IMG/VR virus record: IMGVR_UViG_3300028549_000507
Span: 96,001 to 160,000 of that record
Direction: 5' to 3' (one strand)
DNA: 64,000 nucleotides
DNA from: a virus
Lineage: Duplodnaviria; Caudoviricetes
Shown: positions 42,432 to 45,983 of the stretch, piece by piece
Layout of the letters: every line of letters begins with the position of its first letter
How positions within the stretch are numbered: position 1 is the stretch's first letter
Made by a program: the position numbers and the translations under genes
The notes under the pieces: generated by a model
What the model was told of the DNA's origin: nothing
Seen by the model: only the letters and a program-made list of their open reading frames with translations
Databases searched by the model: none

Positions 42432-43157
42432 TTAGATAGAACCGAAGCCCATACCCATAGGCATTCCCATTCCCATACCCATTCCAGGCATTCCCATTCC
42501 CATACCCATGCCGAACTGCTGTGGAGCACCGAATGGACTGAATCCGCCCTGAGCCTGTTGTGGTTTAGCATTAGGATCTTTCTTAGCGAACGGACTAGTT
42601 GGAGCCTGCTGCTGACCGAATCCCATACCCATACCAGGCATTCCCATACCCATACCCGGCATTCCCATACCGAACTGAGCGCCACCCATACCCATAGGCA
42701 TTCCCATTCCCATTCCCATACCCATACCGAACTGAGCACCAAAACCCATACCCATCCCCATACCAGAATTCTGCATGATCTGCATTACACGTTCCTGAGG
42801 AAGTGCGCCAGAATAAATTGCAACCTGAGGGCTTGTACGTACGATAGCAGATTCAAAGATAGCGTTAAGCTCTTTGATTGTTGCTTCATCTTCAGTCACT
42901 TCGATACCCTGAGATTTGTAACCTGCAGCAAGGAAGGTTTTGATGTCTTCGATCATATAGTGACGACCATATGCACCCTGCTGGGAAGCTGGCTCATACT
43001 TGATACCCTTCTGTTGAAGTTGAAGGATGATCCAAGTAGGATCAATCAGACTATTGAACTTGCTTTCAGTAATGAGAGCAGAGAGTTCAGTTCCGACTTT
43101 TTTAGCAGAAGCATTGGTACCATTTGTTGCCGTACCGGCAGAAGTTTGCTGAGACAT
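42432..43157 (-). CDS. Protein with ~125 aa N-terminal domain and Gly-Met/Phe-Gly low-complexity C-terminus
   Basis: GGAGG RBS, dedicated promoters and terminator; GMGMG repeats and 7 FG dipeptides. Confidence 0.85.
   Translation of the reverse strand: MSQQTSAGTATNGTNASAKKVGTELSALITESKFNSLIDPTWIILQLQQKGIKYEPASQQGAYGRHYMIEDIKTFLAAGYKSQGIEVTEDEATIKELNAIFESAIVRTSPQVAIYSGALPQERVMQIMQNSGMGMGMGFGAQFGMGMGMGMGMPMGMGGAQFGMGMPGMGMGMPGMGMGFGQQQAPTSPFAKKDPNAKPQQAQGGFSPFGAPQQFGMGMGMGMPGMGMGMGMPMGMGFGSI
42445..42760. repeat. Short-unit tandem repeats (cccat/cccata/ggcatt) encoding GM/PGM/QFG
   Basis: Repeats directly visible; GC content locally elevated. Confidence 0.9.
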
Positions 43158-43212
43158 AAACGTCCTCCAAAAGATTTGTTAAAAGAAACTAGAAAAGAGT
43201 TATTTTTCTTCC

Positions 43213-43293
43213 ATCAGTATTTTGTTATAATAACAATATTTTTTTATTTACTGATAGGAGATTGTGACATCTATAAACTAGAAGTCACAATCT
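43213..43293 (-). promoter_or_regulatory. Structured 5' leader or operator: two inverted repeats plus an internal AACA-N6-TG
   Basis: agattgtgac 43259-43268 / gtcacaatct 43284-43293; atcagta 43213-43219 / tactgat 43249-43255; AACA motif 43226-43215. Confidence 0.6.
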
Positions 43294-43308
43294 TATATAT
43301 AATTGAAA
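43294..43308 (-). promoter_or_regulatory. Early-type promoter motif
   Basis: Plus strand tatatataattgaaa, identical to 45969-45983. Confidence 0.6.
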
Positions 43309-43329
43309 TGTAGGTTTGAATAAATCAAA

Positions 43330-45888
43330 TTACATCATAGGTCCGAATCCGAAGCCCTGTTGTTGTTGATTAAACCCACCACCGAAACCACCACCGAAAC
43401 CACCAAACATCTGTTGCTGTTGAGATGCCATCTGTTGCTGTTGCATCATCTGTTGTTGCATCATTAACTGTTGATCAGGTGTAATGTATTGTCCATTGAA
43501 GAACGTTGGGGAATTAAATCCATTTTCCATGTAGTTATTCCCAACTACTTTACTCTGATTAGCTTCGATATACTGACGGATACTGCATGGTCCCGAGCAC
43601 GTAGCAACTACGGTCTGTAATGCTTTAAGTGCGAAAGCGACTTCAACCTTGGTTCGATAAACCTGAGGCTGTATCACAGTAATATATCCTTCTTTATCCA
43701 AGATAGACAATCTAACTCGACGATCGTCCAAGTTCATATTTCTATAATCTTTGAATTTATCTCCAAGGAACTTTGGAAGAGACTTCTTACCAACAGCACG
43801 TCTCCAGTCAATACGGTCACCATCCTTGTTGGTTTTCCGATATTCAGGAGATAGTACGAATGTAGGCCAGAAATCACCATTGTACTCAGGAGATCCTTCA
43901 AATGGTTCACCTTCCACATAGAACTGTGCAGTAGGTGCTACACCATTCTGTTCCGATACCGTTTTAATGATTTCATTGAACTGCGCCATGTCTTTATTGA
44001 CATTTACAGGACGAATACTATCATTCTTAAAGTAACGGGATACAGTAGGAGATGGAATCATAGTTCTATTGAATTCATAGTAGATATGAAGTTGTGATTG
44101 TGGGAATTCGGATTTAATATTGTGTACAAGTACACCAATAAGAGATCCAAGACCATCACGAACGAAAATATCCAATGATTCAATATAGTCTGTAATCGTA
44201 ACATTGATAGTTCCGTCCGCTTTAGGAGGAATCATAATGAAACGAATTGCCGCTGTCATATGCATAGACAGATCTTCATACCCGATACTCGCACCTTTGG
44301 CAAGAGCGATTCTGTTAGAAATTTCTTTACGATATTTCCATTCATTATCGAGATTTGGATTATCCCAACGAGAGATAAGAGCAATACTCTTCGTTGCAGC
44401 AACATCAACATTACCTGAACAGTTATCAAACGTAAATCTGTCGATTGTCGGTTTGTCTTTCTCACTTGTAGTGTAGAAATACTGATCACTGTCTTCAATA
44501 ATGGAAATAGGTTTAAAGATACCTATAACTTTGAGATTAAATGCAATCTGTTTAGAGATCGATTTAACAACACGGTTAAGGCGTTCGTCACGAATCATAT
44601 CGGAATAAACGATATACGTCATAACGTCATATTCACAATCACTCTGATCAAACGTATAACGTAGACGAGAATTTATCTCATTTTCCGCATGGTAAGATCC
44701 ACCAGGAATATCTGTATTGATGAAAATCACACGGATAGATCCTTCGAAATCAACTACAGGACACTCATGTGTTCTTTCATCGATATATAGTTTGTACTTA
44801 AGGTCACGAGCTCCGCGTTTCTTAAACAACTTAAGAATACGATCTACAACCTTTTTAGCATTTGAATCATCATAATCTTCGATAAGATCTGTAAATCTTG
44901 AACGAGAAACGATGTTATAGATATGCTCTTCACGTCCATCAATTTTGAATACATCGTCTTCAGAAGCTTCTTTGTTCTGATTGATCATATCCTCAATTAC
45001 AGCATCACGAGTAACCTTAACATCAGCGATTCCACTAAAATCATTAGCTTGAGATGAGAAGTCTTCATTCTTCTCTTCGACAACTGATTTAGGTTGAGAC
45101 GCCCAGAAATCTTCACCAAGATCTTCATCGAGATCATCGATAGGATTGGATGGAAGATCTTCATTAAGTTCTTCTTCTTCAATCTCATCATCGACAACAT
45201 CATTTTCATCAACTTCTACATCATCCCCGAATAATCCATCAAGATCATCTTCATCATCGAAGAATGAACCATACGCTTCACCGGCATTATCCGGAACTTC
45301 ATCTTGTTTAGCCATTTCCTCTTCCTCTGGTTCGGTGGGGGCTTCGTCCTCATCGATTTCAGGTTCATCAACTTGATCAGCAGCAATTTCATCCTCAATA
45401 ACTTCTTCTACAAGCGATTCTTGAGAAGTTTCTTCAGAATCATTCATCATAGATGCTCCAGGAGCCATTCCGAGATTGCTACGGAGTTCTTGAAGAGCTT
45501 CAACCAATTCCTCTTCAGACAGTCTACATTCAGAATCAGTTTCAGGTACGTAGAATCTGTACTGATCTAGTGGTTTGAGGTATGAGTTTTTGAACTTAGG
45601 AATATCAAATTCCATAAGATCTAACTCTTTGCGATAATCGGAGATACGTTTCTTAAGAGGAAGATTAGCCCCTTGTACGTATTTACATCCCCCACAAACG
45701 TGAACAGATGTTGGATCACCGTCCCGATTCTTGACGGTTTTAGTTCTCTTAAGCTCTTCAATAGAAGAGCTACTTCTATCCGCAAGACAGCACTTGCAGA
45801 TAACTTTACCTTCTTCAAGAAAGTACGGTTCAAACCCCACAATCGTGGAGAGCTCCGAATTCAGTTCTTGTAGGGTGTTGGATTCCAT
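43330..45888 (-). CDS. Multidomain protein: Cys-rich N-terminus, acidic disordered region, folded core, Q/M/FG-rich tail
   Basis: CKCC...CGGC, ~150 aa D/E-rich stretch, ends QQQQMFGGFGGGFGGGFNQQQQGFGFGPMM. Start reassigned to ATG 45888 behind GGAGG. Confidence 0.85.
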   Translation of the reverse strand: MESNTLQELNSELSTIVGFEPYFLEEGKVICKCCLADRSSSSIEELKRTKTVKNRDGDPTSVHVCGGCKYVQGANLPLKKRISDYRKELDLMEFDIPKFKNSYLKPLDQYRFYVPETDSECRLSEEELVEALQELRSNLGMAPGASMMNDSEETSQESLVEEVIEDEIAADQVDEPEIDEDEAPTEPEEEEMAKQDEVPDNAGEAYGSFFDDEDDLDGLFGDDVEVDENDVVDDEIEEEELNEDLPSNPIDDLDEDLGEDFWASQPKSVVEEKNEDFSSQANDFSGIADVKVTRDAVIEDMINQNKEASEDDVFKIDGREEHIYNIVSRSRFTDLIEDYDDSNAKKVVDRILKLFKKRGARDLKYKLYIDERTHECPVVDFEGSIRVIFINTDIPGGSYHAENEINSRLRYTFDQSDCEYDVMTYIVYSDMIRDERLNRVVKSISKQIAFNLKVIGIFKPISIIEDSDQYFYTTSEKDKPTIDRFTFDNCSGNVDVAATKSIALISRWDNPNLDNEWKYRKEISNRIALAKGASIGYEDLSMHMTAAIRFIMIPPKADGTINVTITDYIESLDIFVRDGLGSLIGVLVHNIKSEFPQSQLHIYYEFNRTMIPSPTVSRYFKNDSIRPVNVNKDMAQFNEIIKTVSEQNGVAPTAQFYVEGEPFEGSPEYNGDFWPTFVLSPEYRKTNKDGDRIDWRRAVGKKSLPKFLGDKFKDYRNMNLDDRRVRLSILDKEGYITVIQPQVYRTKVEVAFALKALQTVVATCSGPCSIRQYIEANQSKVVGNNYMENGFNSPTFFNGQYITPDQQLMMQQQMMQQQQMASQQQQMFGGFGGGFGGGFNQQQQGFGFGPMM

Positions 45889-45968
45889 ACTAACCTCCAT
45901 TTAAAACACTTTTTTACACATTAATATATTGACAGTTTAATTAATAATTATTTTATAGATCATCACGA

Positions 45969-45983
45969 TATATATAATTGAAA
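45969..45983 (-). promoter_or_regulatory. Early-type promoter motif
   Basis: Plus strand tatatataattgaaa. Confidence 0.6.

Follow-up and report, generated by a model that had tools for sequence, protein, structure and literature searches.

The locus described here lies in a window of 64,000 nucleotides that spans bases 96001-160000 of IMGVR_UViG_3300028549_000507, a linear IMG/VR virus record of 200,251 bp with an estimated completeness of 72%. Two genes of this window, termed A and B, stand in tandem on the minus strand, upstream of a gene of the non-virion RNA polymerase (nvRNAP), and form the cassette under study. In the direction of transcription, the cassette and its borders comprise the following elements:

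46002..46027, minus strand: intrinsic-terminator-like hairpin and T-run (11-pair stem, T-rich tail) that ends the upstream 444-residue gene and forms the 5' border of the cassette
45969..45983, minus strand: promoter-like 15-nt motif TTTCAATTATATATA, an exact copy, ~70-85 nt upstream of the start of B
43330..45900, minus strand: gene B, an open reading frame (ORF) of 856 residues; the probable start at 45888 gives 852 residues
43294..43308, minus strand: second exact copy of TTTCAATTATATATA, ~135 nt upstream of the start of A and followed by a 9-bp inverted repeat
42432..43157, minus strand: gene A, 241 residues, with GGAGG 6 nt before the ATG
42379..42407, minus strand: strong intrinsic-terminator-like hairpin and T-run directly after A, ~25 nt before the start of the beta' gene
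40565..42352, minus strand: N-terminal piece of nvRNAP beta' (phiKZ gp55 family; phrog_2987, RNA_pol_Rpb1_2, DFDGD)

No terminator-like hairpin occurs between B and A. The ATG at 45888 is the likely start of B, since it is preceded by GGAGG-N5 and agrees with an 852-residue database gene call. Directly downstream of A, the nvRNAP gene has the DFDGD motif and matches Pfam RNA_pol_Rpb1_2 as well as phrog_2987, to which phiKZ gp55, the N-terminal half of nvRNAP beta', belongs. The genome encodes further hallmarks of jumbo phages: several split multisubunit RNA polymerase (RNAP) genes (phrog_2986, 2987, 3295) belonging to two RNAP sets, DNA polymerase pieces, a topoisomerase II, a UvsX-like recombinase, and a tubulin-like ORF (22222..23451; Pfam Tubulin, E 5.4e-8, 30.2 bits, slightly below the 33-bit cut-off). 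An earlier note on this DNA had described two adjacent, otherwise unrelated genes with low-complexity tails, placed directly upstream of the nvRNAP catalytic subunit in a PhuZ-encoding phage. This description holds: both ORFs are present on the minus strand, A and B have no sequence in common outside their tails, the gp55-type gene comes next downstream, and the tubulin-like ORF lies in the same window.

The product of gene B is built of the following parts:

45685..45798, minus strand: zinc-ribbon-like motif CxxC...HxCxxC, residues 35-72, with C35, C38, H67, C69 and C72 invariant in 17 homologues
45031..45453, minus strand: acidic disordered region, residues 150-290 (E 23%, D 19%), of variable length among homologues
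43531..45003, minus strand: conserved core, residues 300-790, predicted to form an alpha/beta domain and a GNAT-like domain, chimallin-like
43333..43527, minus strand: low-complexity tail, residues 792-856 (Q 28%, G 20%, F 14%, M 12%), ending in FGGFGGGFGGGF...GFGFGPMM

B is single-copy in the genome. Its close homologues (n=17) share 38-97% identity, and a profile search over 1.84 billion representatives yields 64 clusters at 50% identity, 53 of them with E<=1e-10. All B homologues are metagenomic and no cultured relative is known. The family has no member in INPHARED or PHROGs, and a set of 50,697 phage records yielded no megablast or tblastn match to the region, to B or to two of its distant relatives. 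The CxxC pairs are present in the distant relatives as well. Short conserved motifs stand in the low-confidence flanks of the core, D299/N309/F318 before it and VVxxNYM and Y-x-TP-x-Q after it, and a motif-A-like RDGxG (D582, G583 and G585 invariant) is not an exact fit to Q/R-x-x-G-x-G/A. By sequence, the protein resembles little else. Pfam and PHROG scans of B are empty, with no nuclease or helix-turn-helix (HTH) domain detected by Pfam, as are PHROG scans of nine distant relatives and Pfam scans of the core sequences of the family (n=63); an HNH_repeat (homing endonuclease associated repeat) match at residues 128-158 (E 0.085) falls under the cut-off. The core alignment finds no match in a PDB sequence-profile search, nor in HMM scans of phiR1-37, phiKZ and 201phi2-1. 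Two named candidates were also compared: for the fifth nvRNAP subunit (phiKZ gp68), hhalign and a phrog_3209 scan are empty, and AR9 gp264, an annotated homing endonuclease with a treble-clef zinc finger, has no detectable similarity to B.

The predicted structure of the B core is more telling. Residues 290-800, folded using a core alignment cut from 62 relatives, give a model with a predicted local distance difference test score (pLDDT) of 88.1 and a predicted template-modelling score (pTM) of 0.83. In a Foldseek comparison of the model with the PDB, chimallin/PhuN chains of 201phi2-1, PhiPA3 and Goslar take all of the first nine places (E 1.4e-7 to 5.8e-5, probability 1.0), ahead of GNAT acetyltransferases (E>=0.017). 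Predicted-structure libraries likewise return true chimallins, among them those of Noxifer, RSF1, Stratton and Eowyn. The chimallin core consists of residues 62-228 and a GNAT-like domain (229-581), and its NTS, CTS1 and CTS2 segments dock on neighbouring subunits and are needed for assembly (PMC9365700). The B model displays the same succession of an alpha/beta N-terminal and a GNAT-like C-terminal domain. With chimallin (ChmA/PhuN: phiKZ gp54, 201phi2-1 gp105, PhiPA3 gp53, Goslar; PF25677), B thus shares a two-domain core over ~340 residues, flexible segments that flank this core (in B with the short conserved motifs), and a gene position just upstream of the N-terminal half of nvRNAP beta'. 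The alignment to chimallin covers 320-362 residues and spans both its domains, whereas that to the second class of structural matches, the DUF7487 domains considered below, covers 271-315. B differs from chimallin by its size (850-1200 residues in the family versus ~620-630), by the absence of detectable sequence similarity, and by its additional parts: the zinc ribbon(s), a 140-residue acidic intrinsically disordered region (IDR), the Met/Gln-rich tail, and gene A inserted between B and beta'.

The gene order is also that of known chimallin loci. In phiKZ, gp54 (ChmA) is immediately upstream of gp55; in 201phi2-1, the order is gp105 (ChmA), gp106 and gp107, with one small gene in between. As many as 631 of 650 chimallins adjoin an RNAP beta-type gene (bioRxiv 10.1101/2025.02.27.640493). 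The order B, A and phrog_2987 gene fits this arrangement, with A as the single small gene in between, comparable in position to gp106. Homologues of A and B co-occur on the same contigs: one relative (L004) carries B, A, beta' and then the same downstream genes, and the order is also found in another (L012). Next to distant B relatives (~20% identity) comes a gene for a small protein that joins Met-rich repeats to a folded head, and then beta' where the contig reaches that far. One such protein (P0144) holds two units, each a domain followed by GMGMPGMNPMM, with an Rpb1_2 gene next to it; further Met-rich-repeat small proteins follow distant B relatives in two cases (P0142 and P0145), and another (P0146) has SSMLPFLMMG repeats. 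In the latter A-position gene (L014:11153-11935), at least 8 near-identical GGLSSMLPFLMMG-x-KDGKE repeats of a different, amphipathic Met-rich kind are observed. The A-position proteins of the distant relatives show detectable similarity in their repeats and none in their heads. Tails of the GMGMNPMM type also close many of the distant B relatives, so the shared tail chemistry is a conserved trait of the module. Judged from these gene orders and sequences, the conclusion that B and A constitute a real genetic unit, across relatives with ~20% identity, is robust.

Since the B core is predicted to adopt a chimallin-type fold and B occupies the genomic position of chimallin, the cassette more probably represents a divergent shell system than one independent of a shell. 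Our favoured interpretation, held tentatively and as a serious possibility, is that it encodes a divergent chimallin-type shell protein (B) together with a conserved, tail-bearing accessory (A). It draws on the locus, on the single copy and fixed synteny of B, on the larger number of residues aligned to chimallin, and on the presence of a tubulin and both RNAP sets in a genome where no canonical chimallin is detected.

A number of results weigh against this interpretation. The superposition of the B core on chimallin is modest (template-modelling (TM) score 0.36-0.41, root-mean-square deviation (rmsd) above 5 Å). Equal or better matches are made by a ~290-residue C-terminal DUF7487/Mom domain (TM by hit 0.61-0.74, rmsd 3.6-5 Å), found in proteins annotated as "Hef-like homing endonuclease", treble clef zinc finger, DUF559 or HTH. 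Such matches come from AFDB clusters (E 2e-9 to 1e-7, TM by hit 0.61-0.65), from the ESM Atlas (TM by hit 0.69-0.74, rmsd 3.9-4.5 Å) and, as "endonuclease-like" proteins, from BFVD (E 6e-9 to 1e-7). The DUF7487-domain proteins belong to phages forming no nucleus, and show the same layout as B, a zinc finger followed by the domain. As the DUF7487 domain of these phages matches equally well or better, the fold alone is no proof of shell formation. Furthermore, hhalign of B alignments against gp54 and a 24-sequence chimallin profile gives a probability below 0.1%, and PF25677 has no match in B or in the 63 core sequences. Scans of the 200-kb record with phiKZ gp54, phrog_4795 and PF25677 reveal no canonical chimallin; the record being 72% complete, one could sit in the missing part. 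Within B, conserved polar residues and the motif-A-like RDGxG could point to an enzyme. Finally, the nearest cultured relatives of the beta' gene are those of phiR1-37, AR9 and Staphylococcus jumbo phages. AR9/phiR1-37-type phages are regarded as chimallin-less (PMC13282480), and in AR9 and BpSp an endolysin gene, and no B-like gene, is found upstream of the N-terminal half of beta'.

Several of these points would also suit a B that forms no shell at all. B could be a domesticated member of the DUF7487/Mom-like proteins. It would then act beside the nvRNAP as a soluble zinc-finger factor in transcription or replication, with A as its cofactor, and might be an enzyme of acyltransferase fold or a protein directed at nucleic acids. 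The zinc finger, the conserved polar residues and RDGxG named above, and the affinity of beta' to phages regarded as lacking chimallin agree with such a role, and the likeness to the DUF7487/Mom-like proteins (PF24308, PF25680) extends over both fold (TM by hit up to 0.74) and layout. B departs from them, however, in several respects. Neither B nor the 63 core sequences match PF24308 or PF25680 at E<=1, and a PF24308 scan of the genome is empty; the B core is larger by ~130 residues; an acidic IDR and a Met-rich tail are added; and B is single-copy, with a position fixed over deep divergence, unlike mobile homing-endonuclease genes. The absence of a detected nuclease domain, the longer alignment with chimallin over both of its domains and the placement of B at the chimallin locus argue against it too, and we consider a soluble factor of this kind, the main rival of the shell interpretation, rather unlikely, though well worth keeping in view. 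What the model does do, at the level of predicted structure, is to place the B core in a chimallin/DUF7487/Mom-like fold class. Nothing on a chimallin-Mom/Hef link was found in the literature.

Gene A codes for a small protein of two parts:

42762..43094, minus strand: helical domain, residues 22-132, predicted all-helical (pLDDT ~80-92) and conserved in 9 homologues
42435..42761, minus strand: Gly/Met-rich tail, residues 133-241, predicted disordered (G 32%, M 25%, P 10%, Q 9%, F 8%)

The protein is mildly acidic (9 K+R versus 13 D+E) and has no significant fold or sequence match, its PHROG and Pfam scans being empty. An antisense ORF of 298 residues (42417-43313, plus strand), rich in His, Thr and Ser, is longer than A itself. 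It is an artefact that mirrors the GM-repeat DNA, and gene callers could be misled by it; conservation of the N-terminal domain of A among homologues identifies A as the real gene of the two. Three identities were tried for A and rejected. As ChmC, it fails on an empty hhalign to phiKZ gp67, on its all-helical fold, and on an empty phrog_3284 genome scan; it has no similarity to 201phi2-1 gp106; and hhalign of the A alignment against phiKZ gp70 gives a probability of 0.3%, with an empty phrog_3520 genome scan, so that only the tail chemistry is alike.

In the tails, methionine rather than phenylalanine stands out. The earlier note had called them FG-rich: low complexity they are, but they are rich in Met, Gly and Gln, with 7 FG against 46 GM/MG dipeptides in the A tail and 5 FG in the B tail, and the FG dipeptides are not conserved in relatives. 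In the tails of 9 A homologues and ~80 B relatives, Met reaches 15-24% versus 2.8% in the proteome, a 5-9 fold increase, while Phe remains at background (5-6% versus 4.9%). Like FG nucleoporins, the A and B tails are long, uncharged, disordered and potentially cohesive, with a few FG/GF dipeptides; they differ in that Met is enriched instead of Phe, that the few FG are unconserved, and that no homology exists. The analogy with a nuclear-pore FG barrier therefore fails on both tail composition and conservation. Nothing was found in the literature on Met-rich tails in jumbo phages.

According to the same note, the two proteins might co-assemble, independently of a shell, into a condensate or selective FG barrier that surrounds phage DNA and nvRNAP, in a phage lacking a chimallin-type shell. 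The length, disorder, lack of charge and similar chemistry of both tails would suit such a phase, as would the conservation of the pair and the lack of a canonical chimallin in the record; a precedent exists in ChmC, the disordered tail of which drives condensates (PMC11077065). Yet the well-folded, conserved B core with its chimallin-type fold makes a shell-independent system less economical, FG motifs are few and unconserved, and in close relatives the B tail amounts to just ~50-65 of ~850 residues. A condensate replacing the shell is, on this balance, very improbable. Of the original proposal, the link to a phage compartment is likely, through the predicted fold and the locus of B, and its shell-independence finds no support; likewise, the claimed absence of ChmA holds at the sequence level only, the predicted fold of the B core being chimallin-like.

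Met-rich segments have established roles in other systems, as chaperone-like elements (the SRP54 M-domain, the GGM tails of GroEL), in soft-metal binding and as oxidant switches. The tails might have nothing to do with compartments, and serve in chaperone-like binding of hydrophobic segments, in soft-metal binding or as an oxidant-sensitive switch, with the RNAP adjacency devoid of functional meaning. A Met enrichment (15-25%) that is a conserved tail property speaks for this. The tails, though, ride on two different folded proteins that remain adjacent to each other across deep divergence, beside beta', and PHROG and Pfam scans show no signal peptides or metal-handling genes nearby. Cellular GroEL carries a GGM-repeat C-terminal tail, whereas the phage's own GroEL-like chaperonin (3785-5650, minus strand, 621 residues, phrog_5725 E 2e-78) lacks one. 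We would give this explanation very little weight, if anything a shade less than the condensate.

The divergent-shell interpretation can draw on parallels among proteins of known phage nuclei. PhiPA3 gp61/ChmC, gp63 and gp64 are shell-associated and encoded in the chmA-nvRNAP cluster, and ChmC is highly expressed and requires its N/G-rich disordered tail for RNA condensates (PMC11077065). Like A, ChmC (PhiPA3 gp61/phiKZ gp67) is a protein of ~250 residues in which a disordered tail of low complexity follows a folded N-terminal domain; in contrast, its fold is a Whirly beta-rich, RNA-binding one and its tail is Asn/Gly-rich, whereas A is all-helical and mildly acidic with a Gly/Met-rich tail. 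PhiPA3 gp64/phiKZ gp70 (phrog_3520), also from the nvRNAP gene cluster, resembles A and B by a Met-rich disordered C-terminal tail, which in phiKZ gp70, as read here, is rich in Met, Gln, Pro and Gly. Neither A nor B is related to its folded part, and it is longer than A (433 versus 241 residues).

In a divergent shell, the B core (~490 residues) would tile, like chimallin, into a proteinaceous shell enclosing the nvRNAP and the replicating phage DNA, from which the zinc ribbon, the acidic disordered region and the Met/Gln(/Gly/Phe)-rich tail would project. A follows B in all loci examined and is equipped with a separate promoter-like motif, a strong ribosome-binding site and a terminator-like hairpin. 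It may be an abundant accessory of the shell, retained there by tail-tail or tail-core contacts. It would thus parallel the low-complexity-tailed shell-associated proteins that chimalliviruses encode in the same chmA-nvRNAP cluster (ChmC; PhiPA3 gp64/phiKZ gp70). More speculatively, the tails could form a cohesive layer affecting traffic across the shell.

A and B are therefore best regarded as a known theme in divergent and re-elaborated form. Four features are new: a chimallin-fold protein that cannot be recognised by sequence, its zinc-ribbon/acidic-IDR/Met-tail architecture, its obligatory Met/Gly-tailed partner, and a structural bridge to DUF7487/Mom-like proteins. A bolder extension, which we deem improbable, would make the B family a missing link: chimallin shells would derive from the DUF7487/Mom-like domain of zinc-finger "Hef-like" proteins and not from a toxin-antitoxin acetyltransferase, the B and A tails would constitute a nucleoporin-like selective layer on the shell, and nucleus-forming phages would extend beyond the sequence-defined Chimalliviridae.

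Nucleus-forming phages are now recognised by a sequence-detectable chimallin, and phages without one are assumed to be shell-less. A clade of uncultured jumbo phages, represented by the 64 clusters and equipped with two multisubunit RNAPs and a tubulin, may be missed by this test. If B forms a shell, the phage nucleus would be older and more widespread than thought, chimallin would gain a plausible ancestor family in the DUF7487/Mom-like proteins, and Met-rich tails, present also on shell-associated proteins of the phiKZ gp70 type, could be tested as a common trait that bears on traffic or organisation at the shell. If B forms none, the chimallin fold would have a second job beside the phage RNAP.

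Regarding transcription of the cassette, the 15-nt motif TTTCAATTATATATA recurs with up to 2 mismatches in 12 copies in the window; 2.7 are expected by chance, and none of 100 shuffles has as many as 12. Genome-wide, near-copies are located 37-70 nt upstream of ~8 genes, including RNAP subunit and polymerase genes, which makes it plausible that TTTCAATTATATATA is a phage promoter element. The earlier note had termed it an identical early promoter: the copies at 43294 and 45969 are indeed exact, but "early" is not established from sequence. Many small genes are preceded, at a distance of 23-90 nt, by another promoter-like motif, TATATTTAATAGT (e.g. 3338-3350, plus strand), of which many copies lie at 16-70 kb of the genome. 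The difference between both motifs suggests two promoter classes, and both resemble AT-rich early promoters annotated in AR9. In the ~135-nt leader of A, just downstream of TTTCAATTATATATA, a perfect 9-bp inverted repeat (GATTGTGAC...GTCACAATC, 43251-43283, minus strand) without T-run could form a regulatory or processing hairpin.

The DNA is AT-rich (~33% GC). The sequencing runs in which at least two thirds of its sampled words are present come from two metagenome studies of microbial mats, and one run may be the source. Elsewhere in the window, a phrog_3004 virion-structural-like protein of 1021 residues (7977-11042, minus strand) also ends in a repeat tail, here acidic and Gly/Asp-rich (GGDTGGDAGGGDFGGDD...). 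Three genes neighbouring the cassette (46040-47374, minus strand; 47437-48483, minus strand; 49863-53417, plus strand) have in common a motif S-x-E-x-x-L-T-x-[IM]-x-G-[LI]-E, N-terminal in the proteins of 444 and 348 residues and internal (~residue 590) in that of 1184 residues. It resembles a prohead-protease cleavage or capsid-targeting signal of the phiKZ type (S/A/G-x-E). Only four matches occur in the 200-kb genome, counting a weaker copy in B. The idea that B is virion-packaged, based on the likeness of its N-terminus to S-x-E-x-x-L-T-x-I-x-G-x-E, was dropped: its homologues show G-[YF]-x-P-Y with the Glu unconserved, and the likeness is coincidental or weak. The genes for the 444- and 348-residue proteins are missing from this spot in L004. 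The 1184-residue protein is a tandem duplication, each half having a conserved start YFG-x-HPFSQ and a metalloprotease-like HEIGHNFQ (HExxH), with the cleavage-like motif at the junction; its counterpart in L004 is a single version of 627 residues.

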